Origin: an uncultured Dehalococcoidales bacterium
GTDB taxonomy: Bacteria > Chloroflexota > Dehalococcoidia > Dehalococcoidales > E44-bin46
Length of the DNA: 64,000 nt
Assembly: GCA_964419575.1 (NCBI GenBank)
Contig: CAYQQD010000001.1
Span: 7,403-71,402 of the forward strand
Direction: 5' to 3'
The notes below the pieces were generated by a model that was not told where the DNA came from, did not search any database, and saw only the letters and a list, made by a program, of their open reading frames with translations. Below, in pieces: positions 31,492 through 64,000 of this stretch; position 1 is the first letter of the stretch, and the number at the start of each line of letters is the position of its first letter. Made by a program: the position numbers and the translations under genes.

Positions 31492-31547
31492 GCCTGTCAC
31501 ACTCCCCACGTTCAATATTAATCCCAAGAAAAATAAAGGGGGCTAAG

Positions 31548-31790: not shown

Positions 31791-31793
31791 GCG

Positions 31794-38320: not shown

Positions 38321-40357
38321 TTGTCAGTGCAAAGAGGCTTTTATTTTGACCAGACTAGATGTATCGGGTGCTTCACCTGTTGTGTAGCCTGTAAGGATTG
38401 GCATGATATACCTGCCGGGCCAGCCCACTGGCGGAGGGTAGCCCCGTTTGAAGACAGTAAATTTCCTCGGCCTTTCCTGGCCTACCTTTCCGCTGCCTGC
38501 TACCATTGTGAGAACCCTCTCTGCGCCGTAGTTTGTCCTGCCGAAGCGATAACCAGAAGGGAAGACGGCATAGTCGTAGTGGACAGGGAAAAGTGTCAGG
38601 AGAGCGCTCGTTGTGGTATTACCCTCACCAATGGCAGTGGCCAGATAAATGTGTCTGCCTGTGAGGTAACCTGTCCCGCTCATGTTGATGTACCAGGCTA
38701 CATCGCTCTAATTAGTAAAGGTAAGTTTAAGGAAGCGCTAGACTTAATGCGAGAGAAACTACCTTTACCTGGCGTTTTGGGCAGGGTGTGCTCTCACCCT
38801 TGTGAAAGTGAGTGCAAAAGGGGTGAAGTTGATAAACCTCTGGCTATCAGAGACCTCAAGCGATTCGCCTATGATGCGGTAGCTGATGAAAAGCCTGTCC
38901 CTCTGCCTAGGACAAAAGAGCAAAGTGTAGCCATTATCGGCTCAGGGCCAGCAGGACTTTCTGTAGCCTACGACCTGATAAGAAAAGGCTATAAGGTTAC
39001 AATCTTTGAAGCACTTCCTGTCATAGGGGGCATGGTGGTGGTGGGTATTCCTCGTTACCGACTGCCCACAGAGGTCTTGAACCGGGACATTGAGTACCTT
39101 AAAGGTCTGGGGATAGAAATTAAGGCCAATACACCTATTGGTAAGGAGACGACTTTGGATGACCTATCCCGCCAAGGTTACGACGCCATCTTCATCGCAG
39201 TGGGGGCTCATAATGGGCGTAAGCTCCCTATTCCTGGCGCTGAAGCTGATAATGTATTAGTGGGTACCTCATTCTTGCGCGATGTAAACCTGGGCAATAA
39301 CATCAAGCTGGGTCAGAGAGTGCTAGTGCTTGGTGGCGGTGGTATAGCCATTGATTGTGCTCGTGTTGCTCTTCGCCTAGGTGCGCAAAAAGTAGAAGCT
39401 GCCTGCCTGGAGTCCCGGGAGCAGATGCCAGCCTTAGACTCTGATATCGCTGAAGCTGAGAGGGAAGGGATAATCATTCACCCCTCGCGTACCTTTAAAC
39501 AAGTTGTGTGTCAGGATGGATGTGCTACTGGAGTAGAGTGCCTTAAATTGCGCTGGATGGAGTTTGATAAGGATGGGAAGCTGCACATAGACCCCATCGA
39601 AGGGTCAGAGCATGTCTTATCTGCAGATACGATTATATTCGCCATTGGTCAATCTCCAGACCTCGATACCCTCTTGGCAGGCACTGACATCGAGGTAACC
39701 AAACGCGGCACCATCGCTGTGGACCCTGAAACTCTACAAACCAGCCGCCCTGGAGTTTTTGCTGGGGGAGACGCAGTTACAGGAACGGCTTGGGTTATCG
39801 ACGCTATTGCCGCTGGGCAAAGGGCGGCATTTTACATTGACCACTATCTAAGGGGGGAAGTCCTGGGGAAGGGTTACATAGATATTCTCATAAAGGCCTC
39901 AGATATTAAAGTTGAGATACCGACTGACCTAGTTAAAGAACCGCGGCAGGAGATGCCGACTCTTGCCGTAGAGCAAAGGGAGGACAATTTTGGTGAGATT
40001 GCACTGGGATACGATGGGGAGAAAGCCATCACCGAAGCCAAGAGGTGCATGAACTGTGCCGGCAGGCTCTGCCTTAGGGTGTGTCCTTATGCTGCCCCTC
40101 AGTTTGGGGCTGAAAATAGAGCTAAAATGGAGAAATGTGACTTTTGTGTGGACAGGCTGGAAGAGGGCAAAAACCCCATCTGTGTAGATGCCTGTATTAT
40201 GCGAGCCTTAGACTGGGGCTCGATGGAAAGCCTAAAGGCAAAATATGGAGATATTCAAGAGGCTATCGGTTTTGCGTATTCATCAAGCGCCAAGCCTTCC
40301 ATCATATTTAAGCCGAAACGTCTGCCAGACAAAGCAGCTTCATCGGAGGGAAAATGA
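38321..40357 (+). CDS. DmsB-like four-cluster ferredoxin interrupted by a GltD-like NAD(P)H:FAD oxidoreductase module
   Basis: 678 aa. The N-terminus has 'FYFDQTRCIGCFTCCVACKDW' and 'CYHCENPLCAVVCP'. Residues ~93-575 carry 'GRVCSHPCESECKR' and 'AIIGSGPAGLSVAYDL'. The C-terminus has 'CMNCAGRLCLRVCPYAAPQF' and 'CDFCVDRLEEGKNPICVDAC'. Confidence 0.8.
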   Translation: MSVQRGFYFDQTRCIGCFTCCVACKDWHDIPAGPAHWRRVAPFEDSKFPRPFLAYLSAACYHCENPLCAVVCPAEAITRREDGIVVVDREKCQESARCGITLTNGSGQINVSACEVTCPAHVDVPGYIALISKGKFKEALDLMREKLPLPGVLGRVCSHPCESECKRGEVDKPLAIRDLKRFAYDAVADEKPVPLPRTKEQSVAIIGSGPAGLSVAYDLIRKGYKVTIFEALPVIGGMVVVGIPRYRLPTEVLNRDIEYLKGLGIEIKANTPIGKETTLDDLSRQGYDAIFIAVGAHNGRKLPIPGAEADNVLVGTSFLRDVNLGNNIKLGQRVLVLGGGGIAIDCARVALRLGAQKVEAACLESREQMPALDSDIAEAEREGIIIHPSRTFKQVVCQDGCATGVECLKLRWMEFDKDGKLHIDPIEGSEHVLSADTIIFAIGQSPDLDTLLAGTDIEVTKRGTIAVDPETLQTSRPGVFAGGDAVTGTAWVIDAIAAGQRAAFYIDHYLRGEVLGKGYIDILIKASDIKVEIPTDLVKEPRQEMPTLAVEQREDNFGEIALGYDGEKAITEAKRCMNCAGRLCLRVCPYAAPQFGAENRAKMEKCDFCVDRLEEGKNPICVDACIMRALDWGSMESLKAKYGDIQEAIGFAYSSSAKPSIIFKPKRLPDKAASSEGK

Positions 40358-49103: not shown

Positions 49104-49931
49104 TCAGTGGCTTTTTTCTTTTCCCCGGAAAAACACTCCTAGATGGGGTTTTTCCAATACTGGGGACTGAGCCAATCTCAGTGCTAGCCTGATATTACCA
49201 GGATCATGATTCCAAGGTTTTTCTTTCGATGAATCTGGTAACTCCACTGGTTGTCCGTCTGTCAGGTAGCTGGCCTTCTTCTTTATTGTTTTGAAGAGCT
49301 CTAGAGGATCAAAGATAGCACACGGAGTTAGCACACTGATAAACGAAAACCCTCTATGCTTAATTCCTTCTTCTATCAACCAGGCGAGATGAGGAGGGTC
49401 GGTAGCAATACCTTGAGCAATAAAACTCGCTCGCGTTGAAACACTGTAGCTAATCATATCTAACATCGGGTCTACTGGCGGATAGAATTGCCATGAGAGA
49501 AATGGCCCTTCACCGCGTTCCAGATGAGGGGTGGTAGGGCTAGTCTGCCCTTTGGTGAGAGCATATACAAAATTATTGACCATGATGCAGGTTATATCAA
49601 TATTTTTCCTTACTGCATGTGGAAGATGCCCAGCTCCAATGCTGAAAAAATCACCATCCCCACCTATGGCTATGACTGTTAGTGCAGGCTTGGCTAGTTT
49701 CGCACCCTGGGCAATGACGATTGCTCGGCCGTGTAGGCTATTAATACCATAAGTATCTATATAAGCAGGCATTCTTGAGGAGCAACCAATTCCGGAAACC
49801 ATGAGAGCCTGATGGCGGGGTATCCCAAGCCCGGGCAGCACTCTTTTGGTAAGGGCGGTGAGCAGGCTAAAATTCCCGCAGCCAGAGCACCAGACCGGTT
49901 TAAGGCTTGTTCTATAATTGGAGGTTATCAT
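49104..49931 (-). CDS. 2-oxoacid:ferredoxin oxidoreductase beta (TPP-binding) subunit
   Basis: 275 aa. 'WCSGCGNFS', 'GIGCSSR' and 'GGDGDFFSIG'. Confidence 0.9.
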   Translation of the reverse strand: MITSNYRTSLKPVWCSGCGNFSLLTALTKRVLPGLGIPRHQALMVSGIGCSSRMPAYIDTYGINSLHGRAIVIAQGAKLAKPALTVIAIGGDGDFFSIGAGHLPHAVRKNIDITCIMVNNFVYALTKGQTSPTTPHLERGEGPFLSWQFYPPVDPMLDMISYSVSTRASFIAQGIATDPPHLAWLIEEGIKHRGFSFISVLTPCAIFDPLELFKTIKKKASYLTDGQPVELPDSSKEKPWNHDPGNIRLALRLAQSPVLEKPHLGVFFRGKEKSH

Positions 49932-51661
49932 TATTTTACTATCTCCATTATTGGCCCGGTCAGCTCTTTTTTAGTAAATGGTCGACCACCGGCTCTACAG
50001 TAGACCTCGGTTTTTTCAGGCAAATCTACTTGAGAGCGGAGATAGCGGTAAAACTGGCCAGAATAACTCATCTCTATTACTAGTAGTTTGTCTAAGGATC
50101 CTAGAAAGCTCTCGACACTATGCGGCAGCGGGTGAAGCAGCTCGGGGACACAAACCTTAACCTGTTGCTGTAACCCTACGTCCTGAACTATCTCTAGAAC
50201 AATTTGGGCGGAAGAGCCCCAGGTTATTATTCCTGTCCGTTGTTTCTGTTCCCCCAAAATTTTAACCAGTTCATCCCTCTGGCGAAGCGGTAGAAGCTTC
50301 TTCCACCTCTTTTCGTGCAATTTTTGATGGGTCTCAAAGTCAGAAGCTGGTGCCCCCGCTTCATTGTGGGTAAGTCCGCTAGTCTGATATACAAGCCCCT
50401 CGTCACCGACAACTGCCATCGGCGAAAGGAAATCTTCTGTTAATCTGTAGCGGCGATAATGTTCAAAGTCTTCTTTAGCTGCTTTCTTTATTTTTACCCT
50501 TGGATAGTCTTTCTTCAGAAATTCACTATTGGTGGCAACTAGAGTTTGCCCAAGCCATTGGTCAGAAAGAAGAATAACCGGCGTTTGAAAGTATTGAGCG
50601 ATATTAATACTCTCTATAGTCAAGCGGTAACATCCTTCGATGTCGCAAGGCGCAATAACTACCCTCGGAGCATCACCATGCCCTCCGTAGATAGCATGGT
50701 TTAGGTCTGATTGCTCCGACCTAGATGGAATGCCTGTAGACGGTCCGCAGCGCTGAACATCAACAATTACCATTGGAATTTCCGCTGCTGAGGCCAGACC
50801 TATCATCTCCGTCATTAAATCAAGTCCAGGACCACTGGTCGCCGTCATTGACTCTACGCCAACCAAGGAAGCCCCGATAGACATTCCGGTTGATGCGATT
50901 TCATCCTCCGCTTGGATAAAAATACCTCCTCTCCGCGAAAGTTCCTCCTGCATTTCCTGCATGATTTCTGCCGCCGGTGTGATAGGATAGCCAAAAAATG
51001 CCTGACAGCTGACACGAACTGCTGCTCGTGCTATGGCAGTGTTACCATGAAGAATGACTTTGGGGAAATAGTCCCGAGGCGGAGATAGTCTTGGCTCAGG
51101 GAAAGGGAATTCGTAAAACAAATGCTTTCCTGCTTCAATAGCCGGCATGTTCTTTCTCAACAGGACTAGCTCTTCACTCTCCTCAATAGTTTTATTCACT
51201 TTGTCCTCTGGAAGAGCTAGGATTCTTATTAGTAACCCTAAGGCCACTATATTCTTGTTCAGAGTCGATCCAGTTACTTTTTGACTTTTCTTAGAAAAGC
51301 CAACCAGAAAAGATTTTCCCGGCAAATTAATCTCTCTCGGGGGTTCGCTATCATAAAGAAGCAAGGTATCGGCTCCCAATGAGAGTTCATTGGCAAGCTC
51401 TTGGTATTTTCCCCAGTTAAAACATACAATAATGTCGGCGCTGTCTTCCGGCAGGGAAAGACATTCAGCATCCAAGCTCAGTTTTATTGCTGAAGCTCCA
51501 CCTCTGATCTGAGGTCCATAGTATCTAGGCATCTGACTGAAATATCCTTGCGATGCAGTAAGTCTCTGCAGAAGACTGCCTAGCACGATCACCCCATCAC
51601 CACCACCACCAACAATCCCAATGGTCAAACTACGTCTCATCTTTCCTATCAAGTGGGTCAC
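49931..51661 (-). CDS. 2-oxoacid:ferredoxin oxidoreductase alpha subunit (gamma-alpha fusion)
   Basis: 576 aa. N-terminal gamma-like 'IVGGGGDGVIVLG', then 'GYPITPAAEIM'. It abuts the beta subunit gene. Confidence 0.9.
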   Translation of the reverse strand: MTHLIGKMRRSLTIGIVGGGGDGVIVLGSLLQRLTASQGYFSQMPRYYGPQIRGGASAIKLSLDAECLSLPEDSADIIVCFNWGKYQELANELSLGADTLLLYDSEPPREINLPGKSFLVGFSKKSQKVTGSTLNKNIVALGLLIRILALPEDKVNKTIEESEELVLLRKNMPAIEAGKHLFYEFPFPEPRLSPPRDYFPKVILHGNTAIARAAVRVSCQAFFGYPITPAAEIMQEMQEELSRRGGIFIQAEDEIASTGMSIGASLVGVESMTATSGPGLDLMTEMIGLASAAEIPMVIVDVQRCGPSTGIPSRSEQSDLNHAIYGGHGDAPRVVIAPCDIEGCYRLTIESINIAQYFQTPVILLSDQWLGQTLVATNSEFLKKDYPRVKIKKAAKEDFEHYRRYRLTEDFLSPMAVVGDEGLVYQTSGLTHNEAGAPASDFETHQKLHEKRWKKLLPLRQRDELVKILGEQKQRTGIITWGSSAQIVLEIVQDVGLQQQVKVCVPELLHPLPHSVESFLGSLDKLLVIEMSYSGQFYRYLRSQVDLPEKTEVYCRAGGRPFTKKELTGPIMEIVK

Positions 51662-52466: not shown

Positions 52467-52542
52467 TGGTAGGCCGTGAAGGAATCGAACCTTCGACACC
52501 CTGATTAAAAGTCAGGTGCTCTGCCAACTGAGCTAACGGCCC
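52467..52542 (-). tRNA. tRNA-Lys (anticodon UUU), CCA encoded
   Basis: Hand-folded cloverleaf with acceptor GGGCCGT/ACGGCCT, D-arm GCTC-AGTTGGCA-GAGC, anticodon arm CCTGA-CTTTTAA-TCAGG, T-arm GAAGG-TTCGATT-CCTTC and terminal ACCA. Confidence 0.95.
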
Positions 52543-52831: not shown

Positions 52832-53812
52832 ATGGCTGAGGTCTATTTCTTCACCAAGACGAAAAAGCTGTTAAGTGCCCTCGACCTTCTTGACATTAAT
52901 GACTTTAGAAGTGAAAGGGTTCCGATAAAGCTTCATATGGGGGAGCCAGGGAATAGGTATTATATTTCCCCGGCTATTGTCAAGCTAGTGGTCGGAAGGC
53001 TAAAGGAGGTTGGGGCTGAGCCTTTTCTATTCGACACCACGGTGACGTACTCTAGCCCCAGGTCTACTAGGGAGGGATATAAAGAGGTGGCTTACAGGCA
53101 TGGCTTTGGGGAGGATGAAATGGGCTGTAAGGTGGTCATTGGGGAGGAAGGGGTAAAAGTCACTGAAGGCGGGCATAGCTTTGAGGTGGCGAAGGAGATA
53201 TACCAGAATAGCCACCTTGTAGTAATCTCCCACGTCAAAGGACATATATCGGCTGGTTTCGGAGGCGCTATCAAGAACCTGGGCATGGGCGGGGTGACCA
53301 AATGGACGAAGCAGAGGATTCACCACATGAGTCAGCCTAAGCTTTCGGTGGAGGAGTGTGACCTTTGTGGGTCATGTGCTGAAGTCTGCCATTACCAGGC
53401 TATAACTGTGGATAAAGTGTGGCGGTATAATAGTGGTGTTTGCTACGGCTGCGGCAAGTGTGTATCTGCCTGTTCTAGCGGAGCTTTGAGCTATGAGGTT
53501 TTGGGCTTCCAAAAGGGGCTGGCACTATCAGCTAAGGCATGCCTTCGAGGTAAAAGGGCGCTCTATATAAATGCCTTGGTTAACATAACCAGTAATTGTG
53601 ACTGCGACTCCGACCCCGGTTCCATGATCTGCCCCGATATAGGCTATCTGGCAGCCAATGAGCTGGCGGCTATAGATAGAGCCTCGCTGGAACTCATAGA
53701 TAAGGTCAAGCCAGGGGTCTTTGAAAAGGTAAACCGAGCCGACCCCTCAAAGCAAGTCCACTATGCACGGGAGATTGGGCTCTCTAGCTCATACCGACTA
53801 AGGAAGCTTTAG
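52832..53812 (+). CDS. DUF362-type protein with an inserted 2x[4Fe-4S] ferredoxin domain (COG2768-like)
   Basis: 326 aa. 'IKLHMGEPGN' DUF362-like start, with 'CDLCGSCAEVC' and 'CYGCGKCVSAC'. Confidence 0.7.
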   Translation: MAEVYFFTKTKKLLSALDLLDINDFRSERVPIKLHMGEPGNRYYISPAIVKLVVGRLKEVGAEPFLFDTTVTYSSPRSTREGYKEVAYRHGFGEDEMGCKVVIGEEGVKVTEGGHSFEVAKEIYQNSHLVVISHVKGHISAGFGGAIKNLGMGGVTKWTKQRIHHMSQPKLSVEECDLCGSCAEVCHYQAITVDKVWRYNSGVCYGCGKCVSACSSGALSYEVLGFQKGLALSAKACLRGKRALYINALVNITSNCDCDSDPGSMICPDIGYLAANELAAIDRASLELIDKVKPGVFEKVNRADPSKQVHYAREIGLSSSYRLRKL

Positions 53813-53847
53813 CCGGAATATGAAAACTAATGCAGGGAGGGAAGCTT

Positions 53848-54426
53848 ATGAATAAGATCCTGATGGGACCTCAAACGTTAATTTATCCCATGCCGGTACT
53901 CTTAGTTGGGGCGAATGTCGATGATAAACCGAATTTTATGACCCTTGCCTGGAGTGGTATTGCCAATGGTGAGCCGCCAATGATTTCTGTGGCCTTACGA
54001 CATGGTCGGTACACCCTCAGAGGCATCAGGAAAAACCTGACCTTTTCCGTTAATTTACCTTCCACTGATATGGTAAGGGAGACGGACTACTGCGGCCTTA
54101 CCCATGGCTCTGAAGTTAATAAAGTAGAAGTCTGTCGGTTTAAGGTTTTCTACGGTAAATTAGGCAGTGCCCCGCTCATTGAGCAATGCCCAATCAATCT
54201 AGAGTGCAAGGTGGTGAATATCTTGGATTTGGGGAGTCATTCCCTTGTCGTTGGCAGAATCGAGGAGACCTATGTCTCAGAGGACTGTCTCACCAACGGG
54301 AAACCGGACGTTAACAAAATTAAGCCCCTTAGCTACATTAGAGCCCCGGCCCAGCGATATCAAGCCCTCGGCCAGGTTATAGCTAAAGCATTCAGTATTG
54401 GTAAGGAGGTTAAAGCAACAAAATAG
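53848..54426 (+). CDS. flavin reductase-like (FMN-binding split-barrel) protein
   Basis: 'YPMPVLLVGANVDDKPNFMTLAWSG' flavin-reductase-domain pattern. GGGAGGG RBS before the ATG at 53848. Confidence 0.75.
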   Translation: MNKILMGPQTLIYPMPVLLVGANVDDKPNFMTLAWSGIANGEPPMISVALRHGRYTLRGIRKNLTFSVNLPSTDMVRETDYCGLTHGSEVNKVEVCRFKVFYGKLGSAPLIEQCPINLECKVVNILDLGSHSLVVGRIEETYVSEDCLTNGKPDVNKIKPLSYIRAPAQRYQALGQVIAKAFSIGKEVKATK

Positions 54427-54476
54427 GCTTTAAGAATAGGAAGAGAATAAAAAGAAGCCAATGACGTGTGGACAAA

Positions 54477-55235
54477 TCATTGAGCTGTCCATCCACCATC
54501 TATGGGCAGTATGACGCCGGTAATCATGGCAGCAGCATCACTAGCCAGGAAGCAAACAGCCTGGGCTACCTCATCGACTGTTACCATGCGGTGCTGAAGA
54601 GGGATTTTATCTAGAACGTAGGTTTTGAATTCTGGGTCGCCTAAATAGCCCTTGGTCATTTCGGTTAGCACAAACGTTGGGGCCACGGCGTTAACCCGAA
54701 TATTATATGGTGCCCACTCTATGGCTTCCTGTCGGGTTAGTTGGGTTACCCCGCCCTTGCTGGCACAGTAATGAGCCCGCTTTGGCCCACCGACGAGACC
54801 CATTATTGAGCCGATATTCACAATAGCCCCCGTCTTACGTGGTATCATCGACTGGATGGCTACTGCCTGATTGCAAAAGAATAGCCCTTTGGTATTGACA
54901 TCGACAACGGTATCCCAGTCAGCTTCGGTGATATCCTGAGCCAATTTAGGAATATTGGTGCCAGCATTACAGACGAGAACATCTATCTCCCCTAGCTCCT
55001 GCCTTATGTGGTTGATAACAGGGGCGATAGCCGGTATATCAGTTACATCTAGCTGGTAACCTCTGGCCTTACCTTTCTCCTGTACCTTCTTGGTGGCTTC
55101 CACCAGACGGTCTAGTCGGCGAGCTACTACAGCTACGCTAGCCCCACTGGCTGCCAATAATTCGGCACAGGCTAGGCCAATACCACTGCTTCCTCCAGTT
55201 ACGACGGCTACTTTATTATCAAAACTGATATTCAA
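54477..55235 (-). CDS. short-chain dehydrogenase/reductase (SDR)
   Basis: 252 aa. 'VTGGSSGIGLA', 'NAG', 'YCASKGG'. Confidence 0.9.
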   Translation of the reverse strand: MNISFDNKVAVVTGGSSGIGLACAELLAASGASVAVVARRLDRLVEATKKVQEKGKARGYQLDVTDIPAIAPVINHIRQELGEIDVLVCNAGTNIPKLAQDITEADWDTVVDVNTKGLFFCNQAVAIQSMIPRKTGAIVNIGSIMGLVGGPKRAHYCASKGGVTQLTRQEAIEWAPYNIRVNAVAPTFVLTEMTKGYLGDPEFKTYVLDKIPLQHRMVTVDEVAQAVCFLASDAAAMITGVILPIDGGWTAQ

Positions 55236-55323
55236 GGAAATGTCCTCTTATTAAATTATACTAGCTAGCTCTCATTTTGAGAAGATTCTAGGTATTACCT
55301 TATTTTTGGCTGATGTTTATGAC

Positions 55324-56379
55324 CTAACCGTCGGGTTTGACTATTATCTTAATCTCGTCATGACCCGGCGAGGTGAGTACATCAAACCCCTTTTTGACAA
55401 TCTCGCTCAACTTAATCTTAGAGGTTATTATCTCGTTAACCGGCAAAAGGCGCCGTTTTAAGAATTCCATGACCATGGGAAATTCATCGTGGTAATAGCA
55501 GAAGCTACCCTGTAAACTGTATTCATAGAGAGTAAAAGGTAAAGGAACGAACGGGATTTCATGAGCATGGAGCCCAACAAGGATAACTTGCCCTCTGGGT
55601 CGGAGAAAGCTAGGCGCACTTTGAAACGCCTCGGGTTTTCCTGAACATTCAAATACCACATCAACCCCGACACCATCTGTCAACTCAAACACCTTTTCTT
55701 TCAAATCTGGAACTTCTGCGGGACAAAACACGTGGTCTGCTCCGAATTTCATTGCTACTTCACCCCGCTTCTTATTCTTCCCCCTGGTAGCAATAATTAA
55801 TCCAGCACCGGCATTTCTCAGGTGGGCAATAACTCCAAGACCTATCATCCCACAGCCCAAAACTATTGCTCTCTCCCTGGGCTTAAAATTCGACATCCTG
55901 ACGGCATGAAGCGAGCAAGCCAAGGGTTCAACCAGCGTTCCCTCTTCGAAGGATACCTCATCGGGAAGGGCATATAACCTGTACTCCGGATGGGGGACTC
56001 TTACATACTTGGCGAAGCCGCCGGCATCCCCTAAGCCAGGAACACAACCTATCTCGTGGTCCAATGCCTGCCGGCAACACGAGGTAAACCCGCGCTCACA
56101 AGCATAGCACTCACCACACTCATATAACTCGTTGCACACCACTCTGTCCCCTATCTTCCAACCCTTCACATTCTTCCCCACCTTAGCCACAACCCCGGAA
56201 AATTCATGCCCTAAATAGGTCCCCGGTTGGATAAAGTCACGAGTTCTATATGAACCTAGGTCACTGCCACAAATTCCACAGTATTTAACTTCTACCAGCA
56301 CCTCATCGTCAGCAATTTCGGGGACTGGCACTTCCTCAAGGACAATATCTCCCGGTCCTCTTAATAGTGCTGCTTTCAC
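55324..56379 (-). CDS. Zn-dependent alcohol/polyol dehydrogenase (MDR)
   Basis: 351 aa. 'CGICGSDL', 'GHEFSGVV', 'CGECYACERG'. Confidence 0.85.
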   Translation of the reverse strand: MKAALLRGPGDIVLEEVPVPEIADDEVLVEVKYCGICGSDLGSYRTRDFIQPGTYLGHEFSGVVAKVGKNVKGWKIGDRVVCNELYECGECYACERGFTSCCRQALDHEIGCVPGLGDAGGFAKYVRVPHPEYRLYALPDEVSFEEGTLVEPLACSLHAVRMSNFKPRERAIVLGCGMIGLGVIAHLRNAGAGLIIATRGKNKKRGEVAMKFGADHVFCPAEVPDLKEKVFELTDGVGVDVVFECSGKPEAFQSAPSFLRPRGQVILVGLHAHEIPFVPLPFTLYEYSLQGSFCYYHDEFPMVMEFLKRRLLPVNEIITSKIKLSEIVKKGFDVLTSPGHDEIKIIVKPDG

Positions 56380-56456
56380 TTTTTCACCTCCTGAAGAAGT
56401 AGTAAATCTTTGCCAGGGCTTGAATCTACGTATCAGAGTTTACATAATAACCGTCT

Positions 56457-57422
56457 TCAAAATACCCCGGTCATTTCCTTCAGTCCAAACGATTTTACTA
56501 TATCTCTAAGCTTCTCCATTTGTTCTTCACTGGGTGGTCTAACCTCTCCCAGCTCATATTGCATGCCTAGCTGTTTATATTTGGATGAGCCAAGCGCATG
56601 ATAAGGCAGCAGCTCTATCATGGTGCCGCCTGATTCAAACACAAACCTGGCTATGGCTTCTATGTCCTGCTCAGAATCATTGCAGCCTGGCACTATTGGG
56701 ATGCGAACAATGATCTCACCGTCACCGTCCACCTCGCCAGAAAGGACCCGCCTAGCATTACTCAGAATCAACTCATTTGACACCCCGGTCAGCTCCTTGT
56801 GCCTCTGCGGGTCCATATGCTTGATGTCATAATATAGCAGGTCAACATATTCCGAGATTTGCTTCAGGTGCTGCCACCGACCATGCCCGCATGTCTCCAA
56901 GGCAGTATGAAAGAACCGCTCTTTGCACCTCTTGAGAAGGACCAGCACAAACTCAAATTGCATCAACGGCTCACCACCACCTACAGTAACTCCGCCCCCC
57001 GACCTATTGTAAAAGAGCCAGTCTTTCTCAACCTCAGCCAACACCTCGTCCACTGTCATCTTCCTCCCGGCGATAGTTCGAGCCCCAAAGAGGCAAGCCT
57101 CGGTGCACCTCCCACAAGCCTGGCAGAGCTCCCAATTGGTAACGGCTTTGCCTTCCGGGGATAGACTAATTGCTCCTTGGGGGCAAGCGTCAACACATGG
57201 CGCCTTACACTTATCGTCACCAACGCATTTGATATTTAGGAAGCGGAGCTTGGGTTGGTGCTTCTGTCCCTCCGGATTACAGCACCATTTGCATGCCAGC
57301 GGGCACCCCTGCATAAAGACCAGGGTCCTGATACCGGGTCCATCGTGAAGGGAAAATCGCTGGATGTCAAATACCCACCCCGTTATCTGCTTAGGCTCAC
57401 TTAGAACCTCTCTGCTTGGCAC
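56457..57422 (-). CDS. glycyl-radical-enzyme activating protein with two extra ferredoxin-type clusters
   Basis: 321 aa. 'GPGIRTLVFMQGCPLACKWCCNPE', 'CKAPCVDACP', 'CQACGRCTEAC'. Confidence 0.9.
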   Translation of the reverse strand: MPSREVLSEPKQITGWVFDIQRFSLHDGPGIRTLVFMQGCPLACKWCCNPEGQKHQPKLRFLNIKCVGDDKCKAPCVDACPQGAISLSPEGKAVTNWELCQACGRCTEACLFGARTIAGRKMTVDEVLAEVEKDWLFYNRSGGGVTVGGGEPLMQFEFVLVLLKRCKERFFHTALETCGHGRWQHLKQISEYVDLLYYDIKHMDPQRHKELTGVSNELILSNARRVLSGEVDGDGEIIVRIPIVPGCNDSEQDIEAIARFVFESGGTMIELLPYHALGSSKYKQLGMQYELGEVRPPSEEQMEKLRDIVKSFGLKEMTGVF

Positions 57423-57508
57423 TTGCTAAGTGTCCCCCCTTAGGAATAGTCTTAAGACAAGAAACCCCAGTCCATATAGCACTGGGGATCAGAGTAAGCT
57501 CAACCCGC

Positions 57509-59977
57509 TCACATACTGTGCTCTGTCCTCATTATGATATCCTCTTGCATGGCGGGGTCCAGTGAGACAAACAGAGCACTATATCCGGCTACCCTTACCA
57601 TTAGGTCGGTATACTTTTCCGGATGCTTTTGTGCCTCCCTCAAGGTCTCGGCAGATACCACATTGAACTGGATGTGCATCCCCTTAAGGTCAAAGTAGGT
57701 TTTGATAAGCGCCGCCAGCTTTCTTAGCCCGGATATATCTTTGAGGACAATGGGGTTAAACTTCTGGTTAAGTAACGAGCCATTATCAGCCAAAACATGG
57801 TCTAGCTTGGCTACCGACTTTACCGCTGCCGTCGGACCCTTAACATCGGTCCCCCGTGTCGGTGAACAACCCTCAGCCACCGGAATATCAGCTTTTCTGC
57901 CGTCTGGAGTAGCACCAATTAGTTCTCCAAAAGGGACATTCTGTGACACTGGGAGTAAGGCAAAACCGCCTCTTCCCCCCGTCCAGCTGGTGTAGCGGCG
58001 CACATCCCTCATGGCGTGACCGGTTGCCTCTTTCACCAGGAGGTCAACATAATCGTCATCATTTCCGTATTTTGGTGCTGCCAAAAGCATTTGCTGTATC
58101 TCCGGCCCGGTTGGTGTGGTAGAGGTATCCTCAAAGTTTGTCTCCAGGGCGTGCATAATCTGGGCACCGGTAAGCTTCCTGTCTTCAAACACCAGCTTCT
58201 TGATGGCGGCCAGGGAGTTCCCCACGTTAGACATGCCCACGCCCCGTAGAAATAGGGTATTATAATGGGCTCCACCCCATTCAATGTCCTTGCCCCTCTG
58301 GATGCAGTCATCCATCAACGCTGAGGCAAATGGTGTTGGCGTCAGCTCGGCGTAGGCTCTCTCTATGCACAGCAGGGCAATTGCTCCCTGCCTATCATAA
58401 TATTCCAGTTGGTGTTTCACCGCCGCCATCACCTCATCAAATGACTGGAATGTAGACAGGTCTTTATTTTCTGGGTTGGGACATAGTCGAATTCCAGTCC
58501 GTGGGTCTCTACCGTTAAATAGGGCTACCTCCAGAACCTTGTGCATATTGTAGCCTGCAGAAGGCCCTTCCCTTCGGGCTTTCCCCGGCTCGGTTGGTGA
58601 AACACAACCGTCAATGGCATAGTCATAAGCATCTTCCAGGCTTATGCCCACTCCCATCTGGGACGGAATTATGACCTCATCGCTATACATTGCTGGTTGT
58701 CCACCGCGGTGGATATTGATGACCTCACAGCATTTGAGCAGAAAATCATCAGGGCACTCATTCCACCACCGCACTGATACCGAAGGTTGTATAACTTTTT
58801 GGTTGGCGGTTGCTTCTAACACTAACCAGGAGAGGTCGTTGATGGCGGACTTGCCATCTATGGTCTGCCCGCCAACGGTTAGTTGCTGGAACATAGGGTA
58901 GCCCATAACCACTCGGGTCGCCGCCCAATCCCTTACTTTATTTATCTCGGTGGTCTTAATCCACAGGCACTCCAGCAGCTCCACCACCTCTTCTGGGGTG
59001 ATTCTCCCCTCATCAATGTCTTTCTGGTAAAAGGGATACATGAACTGGTCAAACCTGCCGTAGCCCATAGAATGTCCGTTAGATTCAATCTGGACAATCA
59101 GATGGGCAAACCATAGGGATTGCATTGCTTCATAGAAGGTTCGCGCTGGGTTACCCGGCACCCACTCACAGTGCTCGGCAATCTTTATTAATTCGGCTTT
59201 GCGCTTTGGGTCTGGCTCCTTACCAGCCATCCCCTTAGCCAGTACCGCATACCTTTTAGCAAAGCCGATGGCTGCCCTCAGCGCAATAATTACCGCTTCT
59301 AGGAATTCTTTCTGTTCCAGAGCCCCAGGCTCCCACAGCTTTAAGTCCTTAATCCTCTCCTCGGCTTCCTTGATTATTCCATACACGCCTTTATTGAGGA
59401 CCTTGGGGTAATCGGCAATAAAGTGCCCCGAGCCACCCCCCTCCCCCCACACGAAAATCTCAATTGCCTGAACGTCATAGCAAGCCTTATATGTCTCCTC
59501 GGGAAGTAGTTTTCGCTTATACTCAGCCATCGTCTTCCCCTCCCACCAATCTGCCAGTTCCCTCAGAATCCTCTCGTCCTCTTGGCTTACCCAGAATGGG
59601 TCTCCCGGTCGTTCCTCAAATCTATAGGGCTTCCTGTCCAGTTCCTCTGTAATAAACCGCATATAGAATTCAGGGAACACCGGGGCAGCTCGCACGTCAC
59701 TGGCTTGGTTACCAACAATAAGCTCGCCGGGACGGATGAATATGCTCATTCCGCCCAGTACCTTTTCCAGAGCCTTTGCCCGTCGTATCACTGTTGGCTG
59801 TCCCTCGGTCTCTTTCCACGATTCGGTATATAGCCTAGCCCGTTCGGAGCAGAGTTTGGGAATAACGGCAAGCATGGTGTCCCTTAACTGCCTGGTCCTC
59901 TCAGTAATCGGCTGTTTACGCTTGGGGTCGGTGACAAGCTCGGTTTTTATTCGCTCTAAATAGGACTTAGCCATCAC
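57509..59977 (-). CDS. glycyl radical enzyme (PFL2 / dehydratase-like clade) with an atypical Cys loop
   Basis: 822 aa. Glycyl motif 'RVAGYSALF' (Gly798). Thiyl loop 'DGCVSPTEPG' (Cys458 at 58604-58606). Confidence 0.9.
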   Translation of the reverse strand: MMAKSYLERIKTELVTDPKRKQPITERTRQLRDTMLAVIPKLCSERARLYTESWKETEGQPTVIRRAKALEKVLGGMSIFIRPGELIVGNQASDVRAAPVFPEFYMRFITEELDRKPYRFEERPGDPFWVSQEDERILRELADWWEGKTMAEYKRKLLPEETYKACYDVQAIEIFVWGEGGGSGHFIADYPKVLNKGVYGIIKEAEERIKDLKLWEPGALEQKEFLEAVIIALRAAIGFAKRYAVLAKGMAGKEPDPKRKAELIKIAEHCEWVPGNPARTFYEAMQSLWFAHLIVQIESNGHSMGYGRFDQFMYPFYQKDIDEGRITPEEVVELLECLWIKTTEINKVRDWAATRVVMGYPMFQQLTVGGQTIDGKSAINDLSWLVLEATANQKVIQPSVSVRWWNECPDDFLLKCCEVINIHRGGQPAMYSDEVIIPSQMGVGISLEDAYDYAIDGCVSPTEPGKARREGPSAGYNMHKVLEVALFNGRDPRTGIRLCPNPENKDLSTFQSFDEVMAAVKHQLEYYDRQGAIALLCIERAYAELTPTPFASALMDDCIQRGKDIEWGGAHYNTLFLRGVGMSNVGNSLAAIKKLVFEDRKLTGAQIMHALETNFEDTSTTPTGPEIQQMLLAAPKYGNDDDYVDLLVKEATGHAMRDVRRYTSWTGGRGGFALLPVSQNVPFGELIGATPDGRKADIPVAEGCSPTRGTDVKGPTAAVKSVAKLDHVLADNGSLLNQKFNPIVLKDISGLRKLAALIKTYFDLKGMHIQFNVVSAETLREAQKHPEKYTDLMVRVAGYSALFVSLDPAMQEDIIMRTEHSM

Positions 59978-60161: not shown

Positions 60162-60980
60162 TCAAGGTGTAAGCAATGCGTTATCTTCGTCAAATTGTCT
60201 ACCACTGGCTTTTTCAAAGGCGGTTATTAAGTCATTGACAGTAAGCCCGTCTCGCTGTTCCTGATTCAGGTCAACTAAAATTTTACCCTCGTGCATCATA
60301 ATCAGCCTATTGCCGTAACGCAAAGCAAGCTCCATGTTATGGGTAACCATTACGGTGGTCATCTTTTCCCGCTGGACAATCATCTCAGTTAAATCAAGCA
60401 CTATTTGAGCCGTCCTGGGGTCTAAATTAGCGGTGTGCTCGTCAAGTAGCAGCAACGCCGGCTTACTTATAGTAGCCATAACCAAAGCTACCGCCTGCCT
60501 TTGTCCACTGGAAAGTGTGCCCACCTGGGCATTTAGCCTGTCTTCTAATCCCAGCCCTAGAGGAGCTAAAGCTGAATGGAATAACTCTTGGCGCTGCTTA
60601 TTGATAGCTACCCTTAGCCCCCTTGGTTGCCCCCGCAGCACAGCCATAGCTAGGTTCTCCTCTATAGTCATCTTGGCGGCGGTGCCTATATGGGGGTCTT
60701 GATATACCCGGCCAACATATGCCGCATGCTTATATTCGCTCAAGCCGGTAATATCAGTGCCATTAACGATAACCTTGCCGCCCCTCTCTGGAGGGAAGAC
60801 ACCGGCAATAATATTAAGTAACGTAGTTTTTCCTGCGCCATTGCTACCAATAATGGTAATATAGTCCTCAGCACTGACATCTAGATTGACATTAGCTAAG
60901 GCAGTAACTTCATCTATGGTGCCTCTGGAGAAAATCTTAGTTATTCCCCTGAGCTGTAGTAAACTCCTATTTTGGCTCAT
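60162..60980 (-). CDS. ABC transporter ATP-binding protein (COG1101-type)
   Basis: 272 aa. 'GSNGAGKTT', 'LSSGQRQAVAL', 'LLLDEHTANLD'. Confidence 0.9.
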   Translation of the reverse strand: MSQNRSLLQLRGITKIFSRGTIDEVTALANVNLDVSAEDYITIIGSNGAGKTTLLNIIAGVFPPERGGKVIVNGTDITGLSEYKHAAYVGRVYQDPHIGTAAKMTIEENLAMAVLRGQPRGLRVAINKQRQELFHSALAPLGLGLEDRLNAQVGTLSSGQRQAVALVMATISKPALLLLDEHTANLDPRTAQIVLDLTEMIVQREKMTTVMVTHNMELALRYGNRLIMMHEGKILVDLNQEQRDGLTVNDLITAFEKASGRQFDEDNALLTP

Positions 60981-60992
60981 AAAACATCCACT

Positions 60993-61907
60993 TTACCATC
61001 TTACTGCTGGTGGCATCCACTCATGCCGTAACTTCTTCCGTATAAATGGGACTGCCAGAGCTATAACCACCAGCACTGCGGTAATCAGTTTCAAATCACC
61101 TGGAGCCATGCCCAATCTAAGGGCAATGGTTATGAATAGCCGATAGCAAAAAGCACCGCCTATTGCCGTCAGCAGAAGCCTAGCCACACCCCGGGGGCGA
61201 AATAGTGCCTCACCAATTATTACCGAGGCTAACCCCATTACAATCATTCCTATCCCCATACCCACATCAGCAAATCTCTGCCCCTGGGCGACCACAGCAC
61301 CAGCGAGTCCAACCAGACCATTAGAAATAGCACAACCCATCAATATGTTTTTATCGGTATCCACCCCCAGACCACGCACCATCTGCTCATTATCACCGGT
61401 TGCCCTTAACGCCAGACCAATCTCAGTACGCAGGAACCAGTTTAGAATGAAGAAAACAACAACGGCAATGGCTATAGCCACAATGATTGAAACTTTAATA
61501 TCGCCGGGGCTGAATCTCAAAACTTCGGCGACTTTATGAAAGGTGGTCACTTGGCGAAGGAGTGAAACATTAGCTCCACCCATAATCCTCAGATTTATGG
61601 AATATAGCCCCACCATCATAAGGATGCCAGCCAGTAGGGCTGGTAGCCTGAGCTTGGTATTGAGAAAGCCGGTGGTCAAACCAGCGCATAGCCCGGCGCC
61701 AATAGCCGCCACCGTTGCCGGGACAGGGTGCACACCATGGACAATAAGCACCGCTGTAGTTGCCCCACCAAGGGTGTAACTCCCATCCACAGTAAGGTCG
61801 GGGAAAGCAAGTACCCGTAGCGTAAGGTATACGCCAATGGCAACCAAGCCAAATACCAGCCCCTCATAGAAGGAAAAAGATAACACACTACTGGCTATAT
61901 CCAGCAT
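60993..61907 (-). CDS. ABC transporter permease (COG4120-type)
   Basis: 304 aa, highly hydrophobic. It lies between the SBP and ATPase genes. Confidence 0.85.
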   Translation of the reverse strand: MLDIASSVLSFSFYEGLVFGLVAIGVYLTLRVLAFPDLTVDGSYTLGGATTAVLIVHGVHPVPATVAAIGAGLCAGLTTGFLNTKLRLPALLAGILMMVGLYSINLRIMGGANVSLLRQVTTFHKVAEVLRFSPGDIKVSIIVAIAIAVVVFFILNWFLRTEIGLALRATGDNEQMVRGLGVDTDKNILMGCAISNGLVGLAGAVVAQGQRFADVGMGIGMIVMGLASVIIGEALFRPRGVARLLLTAIGGAFCYRLFITIALRLGMAPGDLKLITAVLVVIALAVPFIRKKLRHEWMPPAVRW

Positions 61908-61985
61908 CCTTTTTCTCCTATTTAAGACCTGGATAAGTACTTCTTTATCTATTCAATTGATAGCGGTTATTGCTCCCGCAGGTGT

Positions 61986-62984
61986 CTAGTCTTCTAGTAC
62001 TATGTCGGCAGCGTCTATTACTGCTTGAGGAATGGTTACCCCCATTCTTGCTGCTGCCGCCGGGTAGACTACGGTTGACACTGCGCTCTTCATCGGGGGA
62101 ATATTGGCTATATTTTCACCTTTCAGTATCCTGGCCGCGATATATCCCGCCTGCTGACCAATCCAGTAGTAATCGCAGCTACAACCGCCAACCAGACCGG
62201 TTTCAACCATGCCCACTGCGGAACCAAAGACTGGCAGCTGGTTCTCCTCACCAACCTGGATTATGGATTCAATTCCCACACCGCCTACGGTATTGCAGGT
62301 AGGAATCCATATTGCGTCACACCTGCCTACCAGTGACATCCCGGCAGCATAAACATCGGCAGTTGATGCCGCTGTTGCCTCAACAACGCTAAGCCCATAG
62401 TCCGGGGCAACCTCTTTGAGTATCTGTGCCTGCACCTGCGCGTTCACCTCGCCAGGGTTATAGGCAGTGCCCAGTACCTTGACGTCAGGCAGGACTGACA
62501 GAAGAAATTCCACCTGAGGCTCCATATCAAACCAGTCGCTGACCCCGGTTACCGTGGGTGCCGCTTGTTCCCAACTAGGCACTAGACCAGCCGTTACCGG
62601 GTCAGTAATCGAGCTGAAGACTATCGGTATATCTGTACCCTCAGCAGCAGCCACTGCCGTTTGTGCCATTGGGGTAGTTATGGTGTGGATTAGGTCTGGC
62701 TTAAGGGAGACAAAGTAGTCAGCGATTGAAACCGCTACCGTCATATCACCCTCAGCATTTCTTATGATAAACTCAACATTTTCTCCCTCAATAAAGCCCT
62801 TCTCAGCCATAGCATCAATGATACCCTGGCGATTGGCGTCTAGGTCAGGGTGGGTAGCTATCTGACTTATGCAAACCTTATACATCTTTTTCCCACCAGG
62901 AACACAACCGGTCATGAACGGCAGCGTGGTTAATACTAAAGCTAAGCACAGGCTGCCTAACAATACTAATAAGCCTTTCTTCAT
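61986..62984 (-). CDS. ABC transporter substrate-binding lipoprotein (ABC_sub_bind / COG2984-type)
   Basis: 332 aa. Lipobox 'FMTGC', and 'YKVCISQIATHPDLDANRQGIIDAMAEKGFIEGENV'. Confidence 0.8.
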   Translation of the reverse strand: MKKGLLVLLGSLCLALVLTTLPFMTGCVPGGKKMYKVCISQIATHPDLDANRQGIIDAMAEKGFIEGENVEFIIRNAEGDMTVAVSIADYFVSLKPDLIHTITTPMAQTAVAAAEGTDIPIVFSSITDPVTAGLVPSWEQAAPTVTGVSDWFDMEPQVEFLLSVLPDVKVLGTAYNPGEVNAQVQAQILKEVAPDYGLSVVEATAASTADVYAAGMSLVGRCDAIWIPTCNTVGGVGIESIIQVGEENQLPVFGSAVGMVETGLVGGCSCDYYWIGQQAGYIAARILKGENIANIPPMKSAVSTVVYPAAAARMGVTIPQAVIDAADIVLED

Positions 62985-63074: not shown

Positions 63075-64000
63075 TCAAAACCCTTGTTGTAAAACTTCAG
63101 CCAATTCCTTTCTGCTCAGGTCGGCTATCCCTAGCTCTTCGAGCGACCTTCCCTCCTTATAATAATCTGTCTGGTTTATCACCGAAGCCAACTTGATTGT
63201 AGCATCAATAATCGGAATGTCAATATTAAATTTATGTGCCAATTGTGCTGCCGGGACTAACCCGTAGGGGACATCCTCAGTTATAAACCTGCTTTTCATT
63301 GATGAAGGTTCGGTGATATTAGCCACAGTGCCCTCTTTATCAAACGGAGCCTTAAAGTAGACCGACATGATTGTGCTCTTTAACCAGAATGATTCCTCAG
63401 GACATTCAAGTAATTTTATACCAATAGCTTCCCCGACTCTGGCTACCTCTTCATAGACCGCTTTTATCGCCCTGGCTATGGACAGGGTGGTGCCATGCTT
63501 ATAAAAGTGGAAGTCCTTACCTAGGGTGTCAATCCAGCCGGCGTTTAGAATTGTCCCAACCGGGTGCACGATTGGATTTGGGTTGTTTAGCGAAGTCGCC
63601 AGAACGTTCTCGCCGGGAACCACCGGGTAAATAGGCTTTAATTCATTTATGACCCTACCTGTGTCCTTGGCTGGAAAGGCAGCTAGTAGCAGCTTCCAGG
63701 CGTCAACGAATATCTTTACTCTGGCTAGAGCTTCTAGCCGGCACCCCCAGGGAAGGGTATGTCCCTCGGCTAGAATAATATCTCTCTTCATCCCCTTTTC
63801 TCTTAACATATTAGCCAGTAATAGCGCCGAGTAGTTTCCCGGCCACATAACTATGGTCTGGCCATCCCTTAGGTAAGGCATTATGGAGCTAAAAAAGTGC
63901 TTGTGTCCCATGGCTGGAATAACCACCATAATATAATCAACGCCCTTTATTGCCTGCTCGAAATCTGTTGTCACCACCCCCGGCTTTACCACCCTCTCCT
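63075..64000 (-). CDS. octopine/nopaline (opine) dehydrogenase-family protein, 5' end outside the window
   Basis: 'HTLPWGCRLE' and the helical C-terminal domain pattern. The N-terminal Rossmann loop is missing and the frame is open to base 64000. Confidence 0.65.
   Translation of the reverse strand, partial: ERVVKPGVVTTDFEQAIKGVDYIMVVIPAMGHKHFFSSIMPYLRDGQTIVMWPGNYSALLLANMLREKGMKRDIILAEGHTLPWGCRLEALARVKIFVDAWKLLLAAFPAKDTGRVINELKPIYPVVPGENVLATSLNNPNPIVHPVGTILNAGWIDTLGKDFHFYKHGTTLSIARAIKAVYEEVARVGEAIGIKLLECPEESFWLKSTIMSVYFKAPFDKEGTVANITEPSSMKSRFITEDVPYGLVPAAQLAHKFNIDIPIIDATIKLASVINQTDYYKEGRSLEELGIADLSRKELAEVLQQGF

Follow-up and report, generated by a model that had tools for sequence, protein, structure and literature searches.

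What reaction is catalyzed by a glycyl radical enzyme (GRE) that shares its fold with the diol dehydratases and carries other residues in place of their active-site Glu and Asp? This question is raised by a gene in a 64-kb stretch of DNA (64,000 nucleotides, referred to here as the window) from an uncultured Dehalococcoidales bacterium. An initial annotation had described a GRE with a Cys-Val-Ser (C-V-S) thiyl loop in an operon rich in dehydrogenases, and had proposed that its acid-base chemistry differs from that of characterized relatives. Our data indicate that this GRE descends from the B12-independent diol dehydratase branch and that its active site has been re-tooled. Judged by its sequence, the window encodes an intact, single-subunit GRE that is under selection and is accompanied by its cognate activase.

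A Cys-Val-Ser loop on a diol dehydratase scaffold

The GRE gene lies on the minus strand at 57509..59977, and its product was assigned to the PFL2/glycerol dehydratase fold by Pfam, the NCBIfam model TIGR01774, an AlphaFold2 (AF2) model and Foldseek. The open reading frame (ORF) opens with GTG, which gives 822 amino acids, while an ATG one codon downstream (59974) gives 821. Since all close homologues are 821 amino acids long, this ATG may be the true start, in which case the residue numbers used here would be one lower. Pfam matches cover the PFL-like domain (PF02901, E 5.8e-213) and the glycyl radical domain (PF01228, E 9.6e-35). The glycyl radical site is Gly798 (codon 57584..57586, minus strand) in the motif RVAGYSA, which starts at residue 795, and the thiyl-radical cysteine is Cys458 (codon TGT, 58604..58606, minus strand), which aligns to Cys433 of glycerol dehydratase (GDH) and lies within AIDGCVSPTEPG, starting at residue 454. 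Both the Cys and the radical Gly are invariant among 52 GRE homologues. The length, the radical Gly and the Cys codon of the initial annotation thus agree with the ORF, the motifs and Pfam.

The AF2 model (pLDDT 94.9) found its best Foldseek matches in 9rco, a propanediol dehydratase (PD), and 1r8w, the GDH of C. butyricum (DhaB1), with TM scores of 0.93-0.98. Dehydratase ancestry is indicated since these are the best matches in both sequence and fold (46% identity and a root-mean-square deviation of 1.4 Å to 1r8w; TM 0.94/0.98 to 9rco); across GDH and PD (9rco and 5i2a) the identities are 46 and 42% and the deviations 1.4-1.7 Å. The window GRE further resembles GDH and PD in being a single subunit with the same type of activase. 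The gaps of 184 bp and 86 bp on either side of the GRE gene leave no room for a small-subunit ORF of at least 50 amino acids, in line with the absence of such ORFs noted before, and no beta or gamma small subunits were found in the related GRE loci examined.

Within this shared scaffold the Cys loop differs. HMMER alignments of the window GRE to 1r8w, 9rco and 5i2a run without gaps for dozens of residues on each side of the loop, placing YAIDGCVSPTEPGK over YGIIGCVEPQKPGK. Since the loop is ungapped, Ser460 (codon TCA, 58598..58600, minus strand) truly occupies the position of GDH Glu435, the catalytic Glu of eliminases. A shift in the register of the Cys loop, with a Glu in the canonical place after all, is ruled out by these gap-free alignments to three dehydratase structures. 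The substrate-binding acid of diol dehydratases, GDH Asp447, is replaced by Pro472 (codon 58562..58564, minus strand), and GDH Tyr339 and Tyr640 correspond to Phe363 and Leu675. Retained from GDH are His164, His281 and Ser282, as His185, His302 and Ser303; of the GDH/PD acid pair around the leaving hydroxyl, the His is therefore kept while the Asp is gone. Phe363 and Val677 are as in homologues with the GDH motif, which are probably of the propanediol dehydratase type. The CXE motif shared by the GRE 1,2-eliminases and isomerases (GDH, PD, CutC, HypD, IslA, HpsG, HplG, YbiW and PflD) is absent, the loop reading C458-V-S460. We also considered Glu470, in the sequence RREG, as a relocated base; this candidate is not supported, as one C-V-S homologue (P0034) has KRQ here and one C-V-E homologue (P0026) has RKE. 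The Glu/Asp chemistry of the nearest relatives is closed to the window GRE, whose own acid-base chemistry would be different, as first proposed.

No family of established function claims this protein. Among the NCBIfam models only the broad subfamily TIGR01774 (PFL2/glycerol dehydratase) was passed, at 781.7 bits against a cut-off of 678.2. The equivalog models for HypD, HpsG, HpfG, CutC, indoleacetate decarboxylase (IAD) and 4-hydroxyphenylacetate decarboxylase (HPAD) failed with 395-625 bits against cut-offs of 1000-1150, and the pyruvate formate-lyase (PFL) model TIGR01255 failed with 167.9 bits against 994. The Cys-Cys pair of PFL is missing, Gly457 preceding Cys458, in line with the initial annotation. 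The NCBIfam cut-offs, together with the isolation of the protein in its own cluster at 50% identity (described below), rule out any named GRE function and place it outside the families of known function. A sulfonate lyase was rejected for lack of the Arg/Gln/Arg triad of IslA and HpsG at aligned positions. A PhdB-like identity was rejected as well, since the C-x-Q loop with Trp at Cys+13 that marks PhdB occurs in other clusters (P0252, P0253 and P0277, approximately 38-39% identical) and not in this clade.

What does a residue other than Glu two positions after the Cys (Cys+2) imply? According to a GRE review of June 2026, the CXE motif is kept by six C-O eliminases, CutC, three C-S lyases and three isomerases, and its Glu is hydrogen-bonded to the substrate hydroxyl. 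HPAD and IAD carry the Glu too. Rodrigues et al. (PMC7079210) report Gln at this position for PhdB, and Ser for both PflB and the benzylsuccinate synthase (BSS) subunit BssA. The background given in the initial annotation was incomplete: it named eliminases and decarboxylases with Glu and had left out the Gln of PhdB and the Ser of PflB and BssA. Activity was abolished in CutC E491Q/A and HypD E440Q (PMC7079210). PhdB Q484E was inactive too (PMC7079210), and this variant shows that the Cys+2 position tunes chemistry other than acid-base catalysis. In BSS, Ser495 neighbors the fumarate-contacting residues Trp613 and Asn615. C-x-S is thus a known state of the loop, typical of GREs that carry out C-C chemistry on carboxylates held at the Cys loop; the novel point is its occurrence on a diol dehydratase scaffold.

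The likeness to these GREs is confined to the loop. BssA and PflB share Ser at Cys+2 (PMC7079210) and hold a carboxylate substrate at the Cys loop without a Glu base, but the window GRE is distant from both (29% identity and TM 0.85 to BSS; PFL matches in part only) and lacks the Cys-Cys pair, the small subunits and the fumarate-binding Arg at Cys+15, where it has Ser473. PhdB is likewise a single-subunit GRE with a non-Glu loop (C-x-Q) that acts on a hydrophobic carboxylate. By its published features PhdB has Gln together with an essential Trp at Cys+13 and an essential Tyr691 (PMC7079210), whereas the window GRE has Ser, Gly471 and, at a position estimated from residue-number offsets, Leu675 for Tyr691.

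Remodeling of the active site in a marine-sediment clade

To describe the pocket we compared 31 C-V-S sequences with 35 GDH/PD-type sequences, scoring columns in which at least 90% of each group share one residue. Seventy positions discriminate the two groups, and those given here fall within segments known to form GRE active sites. From the GDH/PD group to the C-V-S group, Tyr is replaced by Gly178, Phe by Gly180, Glu by Ser460, Glu-Gly-Trp-His by Arg468-Arg469-Glu470-Gly471, Phe-Phe by Gly475-Tyr476, Phe by Thr574, Gly by Phe576, Gln by Arg578, Phe-Gln by Gly670-Gly671, Tyr by Leu675, Ala by Gln679, and Val by Cys704. Position 472, which is Pro, Val, Ile or Thr in the C-V-S group, does not reach the threshold there, and the change from Asp to Pro472 comes from the separate alignments. 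Five bulky pocket residues have become Gly in the C-V-S subclade. Arg or Lys at position 469 is found throughout the clade, while Arg578 (codon 58244..58246, minus strand) is specific to the C-V-S subclade by group comparison; this position is Gln in GDH-type enzymes and Ile, Leu or Val in sister lineages. In the AF2 model Thr574, Phe576 and Arg578 alternate on a predicted barrel strand (572-580), and they should therefore face the same side. Cys704, in the sequence AEGCSPTRG, is invariant in the C-V-S subclade, is Val in GDH-type enzymes, and is present in 7 of 25 sister sequences. The net change in the pocket would be the loss of two acids, the gain of at least one Arg and a larger, more hydrophobic cavity. 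Taken with a binding protein of the aromatic-amino-acid type encoded upstream, this change in charge and size suggests that the substrate is an anion much larger than glycerol, probably a carboxylate.

We next consider where this remodeled enzyme occurs. The exact protein is not present in a collection of 15 billion proteins, which does hold a homologue 99% identical (P0001) and a graded series reaching down to 54% identity, nearly all of it metagenomic. The named sources are marine sediment metagenomes, Chloroflexota and deep-sea sediment from Loki's Castle (SDBS/SDBT accessions), and an 88% identical homologue (UCC90740.1) lies on CP070810.1, a metagenome-assembled genome of Dehalococcoidia. 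Among 1.84 billion representatives at 50% identity, the whole series collapses into one cluster (representative P0042, 1186 bits), with the next match at 829 bits. In a neighbor-joining tree of the 120 best matches, the clade stands apart from other unnamed groups as well as from the GDH/PD group. The clade is thus found almost only in Chloroflexota/Dehalococcoidia of marine sediment. Several members carry the automated name 'formate C-acetyltransferase' (JGI), though they lack the Cys-Cys pair of PFL, and a literature search returned nothing specific to this GRE clade in Dehalococcoidia.

Purifying selection on the gene is strong, with a dN/dS of approximately 0.07-0.08 against homologues 67-88% identical, the orthologues at 83-88% identity among them. 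Across orthologues and paralogues Ser460 is encoded by TCA, TCC, TCT and TCG; since all four TCN codons are used, the residue has been selected for and is not an error. Paralogues can share a contig or an assembly: a 76-kb metagenome contig carries both P0019 and P0025, and a single metagenome assembly yielded P0020, P0022 and P0024.

The Cys+2 residue varies beyond the window GRE. Among the 150 nearest GRE cluster representatives it is Glu in 106 and another residue in 44 (approximately 29%), including Gln in 8, Ser in 7, His in 6 and Asp in 4; loops without the Glu are thus frequent among uncharacterized GREs. Within the clade itself the Ser, Glu and Gln states are interspersed. C-V-E loops combined with altered pockets occur in P0026 and in P0021, which is 82% identical; in P0021 His302 is replaced by Phe, Leu675 by Val and Gln679 by Arg, with the remainder of the protein conserved, which suggests unusually rapid active-site turnover or recombination in the family. 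A Chloroflexota sister subclade (P0043, P0051-P0054 and P0056) has Ser-Cys-Val-Gln (S-C-V-Q), with Gln at Cys+2 and Ser for the usual Gly before the Cys, and is without the Trp of PhdB at Cys+13. Uncharacterized sister lineages (such as P0026, P0042/P0137 and P0053) resemble the window GRE in identity (54-82%), length, Arg/Lys469, habitat and the genes for an activase and a short-chain dehydrogenase/reductase (SDR) nearby, but differ in their C-V-E or S-C-V-Q loops, in other pocket residues and in having genes for pyruvate dehydrogenase (PDH)/acetoin-type E1 alpha and beta in place of a zinc-dependent alcohol dehydrogenase (Zn-ADH).

A conserved dehydrogenase neighborhood

The genes after the GRE are as initially annotated. 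Directly downstream is a GRE-activating radical S-adenosylmethionine (SAM) enzyme (56457..57422, minus strand; Pfam Radical_SAM, Fer4_12 and Fer4) that carries two ferredoxin-type Cys motifs besides its CX3CX2C motif. It passed TIGR02494 with 357.5 bits against a cut-off of 174, and an activase with two extra clusters is therefore standard for this GRE class. It is followed by a Zn-ADH of the medium-chain dehydrogenase/reductase (MDR) superfamily, of the polyol/threonine/butanediol dehydrogenase type (55324..56379, minus strand; Pfam ADH_N and ADH_zinc_N), whose best match in the PDB is (R,R)-butanediol dehydrogenase (6ie0, 176 bits); its homologue search returned only a large uncharacterized Chloroflexota family with automated 'butanediol dehydrogenase' names. 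Next is an SDR of the polyol/meso-butanediol dehydrogenase type (54477..55235, minus strand; Pfam adh_short, with PDB and NCBIfam matches). By sequence, both dehydrogenases resemble secondary-alcohol (butanediol/polyol/threonine) dehydrogenases. GDH and PD, on the other hand, are partnered by an iron-dependent alcohol dehydrogenase (Fe-ADH), an aldehyde dehydrogenase or a microcompartment, and none of these is encoded among the annotated ORFs of the window.

Convergent to this operon are a flavoredoxin-like flavin mononucleotide (FMN) protein (53830..54426, plus strand; Pfam Flavin_Reduct; PDB 3bnk at 157 bits and 2d5m at 131 bits) and a DUF362 protein (52832..53812, plus strand; Pfam) into which a 2x[4Fe-4S] ferredoxin domain is inserted, the only part of it with PDB matches. 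Both had been recognized before, and Pfam and the flavoredoxin structures agree with those assignments. The initial annotation spanned 53848-59977 and so left out the ABC transporter (60162-62984) and the opine-dehydrogenase-like gene that lie upstream on the strand of the GRE. The transporter consists of an ATPase directly upstream of the GRE (60162..60980, minus strand; Pfam ABC_tran), a permease (60993..61907, minus strand; Pfam BPD_transp_2) and a substrate-binding protein of the TrpX/PF04392 family, the aromatic-amino-acid-binding type (61986..62984, minus strand; Pfam ABC_sub_bind), which scores 210 against a cut-off of 390 for NCBIfam TrpX and matches 3lkv, 6hni and 3lft in the PDB. The opine-dehydrogenase-like gene (63075..64000, minus strand; Pfam Octopine_DH) heads this strand; its frame stays open to the window edge, which cuts off the N-terminus with the Rossmann domain, and its best PDB match is 1bg6, N-(1-D-carboxyethyl)-L-norvaline dehydrogenase. 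It is absent beside the GRE in other loci, including L094. A scan for promoters and terminators gave counts no higher than in shuffled sequence.

Is this neighborhood a property of the clade? We compared 12 non-redundant clade loci, collected by exact-protein look-ups, by tblastn and ORF clustering; wider scans of genomes and metagenomes each returned only one close locus (L001, and L095, which equals L083) and were swamped by generic GRE peptide patterns. The activase is adjacent to the GRE in 10 of the 12 loci, and an SDR is likewise present in 10. A Zn-ADH orthologue (63-81% identical) is found in 6 of the 12, all within the main C-V-S subclade. It lies directly downstream of the activase in five loci and beside a second GRE in L092; orthologues 74-81% identical come straight after the activase in L001, L081-83, L091 and L094. 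Since this synteny of Zn-ADH and SDR recurs across the clade, the dehydrogenase-rich context is a conserved property and not a local accident. The two dehydrogenases had suggested to the initial annotation that the product is an aldehyde, ketone or alcohol. The dehydrogenase link proved to be real synteny, while the product itself would still be one of these three only by extrapolation from the neighbors.

L094, which carries an 88% identical GRE orthologue, conserves most of the remaining genes: the SDR (76% identical), the flavoredoxin (88%) and the DUF362-ferredoxin gene (85%), the last two as a pair in the same convergent position, and the ABC ATPase upstream of the GRE (90%). The flavoredoxin has this position in L090 as well. 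The TrpX-family transporter is upstream of the GRE in the window and L090 and degraded in L094, the permease being present in L090 and a fragment in L094; an importer of this family would suit an anionic or amino-acid-like substrate. Two C-V-S paralogues (P0024 and P0025) show the order SDR-GRE-activase-SDR. Sister lineages with C-V-E or S-C-V-Q loops have SDRs and PDH/acetoin-type E1 alpha and beta genes, in one case with a class-III aminotransferase. L176, of the S-C-V-Q type (GRE at 5844-8312), additionally has a tripartite ATP-independent periplasmic (TRAP) transporter and an MtmB-family gene alongside. Genes for URO-D/B12-binding methyltransferases lie near GRE paralogues in L081, L085 and L087. 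The second GRE of L092 (11493-14066, minus strand) has 857 amino acids, 34% identity to the window GRE and a C-Q-E loop, and its glycine motif, RTGGYSA, is unusual; its gene is divergent from that of a Zn-ADH (14184-15230, plus strand) that is 63% identical to that of the window. The same dehydrogenase family therefore partners different GREs in these bacteria.

Several other features of the window were observed. A tRNA-Lys (anticodon TTT, 52467-52542, minus strand) lies between the DUF362/flavoredoxin pair and genes for oxidoreductases and is the sole Rfam or ARAGORN match in the window. At 49104-51661 (minus strand), 3 kb beyond the GRE operon, is a two-gene 2-oxoacid:ferredoxin oxidoreductase (fused gamma-alpha plus beta), which also occurs in L090; an enzyme of the pyruvate:ferredoxin oxidoreductase type is near the sister GRE of L177. 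This oxidoreductase may act downstream in the GRE pathway. Farther away, at 9161-20584 (minus strand), an MvhD/FlpD-like gene is flanked by genes for two giant HdrA-like flavo-iron-sulfur proteins in tandem (1011 and 1018 amino acids), and at lower coordinates the same strand encodes an HdrB/C-like CCG-domain protein, several ferredoxin-domain proteins and an iron-sulfur protein that binds NAD; the region looks like an electron-bifurcating module of the heterodisulfide reductase type. A pair at 38321-42627 (plus strand), an NAD(P)H oxidoreductase with iron-sulfur domains (glutamate-synthase-beta-like) followed by a molybdopterin oxidoreductase, resembles a soluble formate-dehydrogenase-like pair. 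A sulfur-amino-acid cluster (25143-32960, plus strand) contains a ThiF-like gene, two class-V aminotransferases of the cysteine desulfurase type, two PALP genes, a hexapeptide transferase and a pyridoxal-phosphate enzyme of Cys/Met metabolism, and is followed by a Thi4-family gene (33395-34177). At 6430-8601 (minus strand) a class-I methyltransferase adjoins a radical-SAM protein whose N-terminal zinc ribbon is of the HMPTM type, and an AMP-binding enzyme is encoded at 5013-6413. A corrinoid (B12-binding) protein (21709-22368, plus strand) is near a 402-amino-acid protein (22801-24009, minus strand) whose sole Pfam match is a C-terminal double 4Fe-4S motif.

Candidate reactions and what they mean for sediment Dehalococcoidia

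We favor, at somewhat less than even confidence, a reaction in which a medium-sized hydroxy- or oxo-carboxylic acid undergoes base-independent radical chemistry and an alcohol or ketone is passed to the dehydrogenases. The adjacent radical-SAM activase would place the radical on Gly798; the neighboring flavoredoxin and DUF362-ferredoxin pair could conceivably reduce the activase cluster, a speculation prompted by their conserved position. Cys458 would then take a hydrogen atom from the substrate, a medium-sized, partly hydrophobic carboxylic acid also bearing a hydroxyl or oxo group. An acid substrate is suggested because Glu and Asp have given way to Ser460 and Pro472, because Arg578 and Arg/Lys469 are present, and because five bulky residues have become Gly. 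Its carboxylate would sit at the Ser460/Arg578 end, against the Cys loop, by analogy with pyruvate in PFL, fumarate in BSS and phenylacetate in PhdB, the other GREs without a Glu at Cys+2. The substrate radical would react without enzyme-assisted deprotonation of the hydroxyl, with C-C scission such as decarboxylation as the leading option and loss of a good leaving group as the second. The co-conserved Zn-ADH and SDR would handle an alcohol or ketone product, or supply the correct stereoisomer of the substrate.

Several observations weigh against this proposal. Sister lineages in the clade that keep the Glu share the same SDR partners, and P0032 combines a C-V-E loop with an otherwise C-V-S-type pocket; the reaction class may therefore still be elimination or isomerization. 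His185, whose GDH counterpart is the proposed acid, is retained, which suits an eliminase more than it does a decarboxylase, and the products of known GRE decarboxylases are hydrocarbons or cresols, which need no dehydrogenases. The ABC transporter and the opine-dehydrogenase-like gene are linked to the GRE only in orthologues at least 88% identical and are absent at 83%. Rfam, applied to the window at gathering thresholds, returned no riboswitch and hence no clue to a ligand, only the tRNA-Lys. Furthermore, the placement of Arg578, Arg469 and the new Gly residues in the lining of the pocket is a prediction from strand periodicity and from homology to known GRE active-site segments rather than from measured coordinates.

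The retained His185 and the Glu-bearing sisters favor the main alternative, the usual 1,2-eliminase or isomerase chemistry, which we consider possible but not probable. Here hydrogen would be abstracted at the carbinol carbon and a beta leaving group lost to give a ketone, with His185 or the substrate carboxylate as base, or with a leaving group good enough to need none, as proposed for HpsG, whose hydroxyl is deprotonated only after sulfite departs (2026 GRE review); a Zn-ADH and an SDR of opposite stereopreference would interconvert substrate enantiomers via the ketone, or reduce or oxidize the product. The closest structures are indeed diol dehydratases, His185, His302 and Ser303 are conserved, the Glu-bearing sisters that share SDR partners are 60-82% identical, and some sisters lie beside an aminotransferase and a PDH/acetoin-type E1, as is typical of routes from an amine via an alcohol and a GRE to a ketone. 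The two dehydrogenases also resemble an MDR (R,R)-butanediol dehydrogenase and an SDR meso-butanediol dehydrogenase, that is, R- and S-specific types. However, changes to the Glu abolished activity in every eliminase tested, namely CutC and HypD (PMC7079210), the equivalent of Asp447 is lost too, the aligned positions lack the sulfonate-binding triad of IslA and HpsG, and all equivalog models failed. A hydroalkylase resembling the X-succinate synthases, in which a substrate radical would add to fumarate, or to some other unsaturated acid, at the Ser-containing loop of a single dehydratase-lineage subunit, is improbable: the C-x-S loop as in BssA, the new Arg residues near it, the enlarged and more hydrophobic pocket and the deep marine sediment habitat, in which hydrocarbon activation is often ascribed to such GREs, speak for it, whereas identity to BSS and (1-methylalkyl)succinate synthase (MASS) is only 28-29% (TM 0.85-0.87), small-subunit ORFs and an Arg at Cys+15 (Ser473) are missing, genes for succinyl-CoA transferase, mutase and beta-oxidation occur in none of the loci, and an alcohol dehydrogenase and an amino-acid-type importer are misfit neighbors for a hydrocarbon substrate.

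More improbable still is an ordinary known enzyme, PFL ('formate C-acetyltransferase') or a glycerol or propanediol dehydratase, which the automated source names and the best PDB matches (GDH and PD) would suggest. PFL is contradicted by the missing Cys-Cys pair and the TIGR01255 score (168 against 994), a dehydratase by the replacement of GDH Glu435 and Asp447, and both by the annotated window ORFs, which include no aldehyde dehydrogenase, Fe-ADH or microcompartment genes. That the gene is a decaying or catalytically dead paralogue, its Ser a loss-of-function change, is hardly credible; truncated activases and transposases do occur in some related loci (L092/L093), but the low dN/dS, the Ser kept with all four TCN codons, the invariant radical Gly and Cys and the intact, syntenic activase and Zn-ADH in many metagenomes argue against it.

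We offer as a tentative possibility that a single-subunit GRE of the diol dehydratase lineage has converged on the PFL/BSS-type Cys-x-Ser loop and carries out, on a hydroxy- or oxo-carboxylic acid, radical C-C cleavage or formation that is new to this lineage (e.g., decarboxylation). It would be part of a fast-diversifying family of Ser, Glu and Gln paralogues with which abundant subseafloor Dehalococcoidia break down, by fermentation, organic acids of the sediment that are otherwise intractable. Less novel is the residue itself, since Ser at Cys+2 is known from PFL and BSS and approximately 29% of the 150 nearest cluster representatives are without Glu.

Newly assigned GREs have each revealed a hard anaerobic reaction, including choline to trimethylamine, isethionate to sulfite and the synthesis of toluene, and Chloroflexota/Dehalococcoidia of marine sediment are among the most abundant subseafloor bacteria. 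Metagenome studies of sediment take 'pflD' calls as evidence of formate production or as possible hydrocarbon activators. For this clade both the 'pflD/formate C-acetyltransferase' and the hydrocarbon-activator readings are probably wrong, and if so, inferences on carbon flow built on them would change. The conserved four-gene module is a well-defined target in an ecologically important uncultured lineage. Furthermore, with a dehydratase scaffold in which both acid-base residues are swapped and with Ser, Glu and Gln variants among close relatives, the clade is a clean test case from which the influence of the Cys+2 residue on the course of radical chemistry could be learned.

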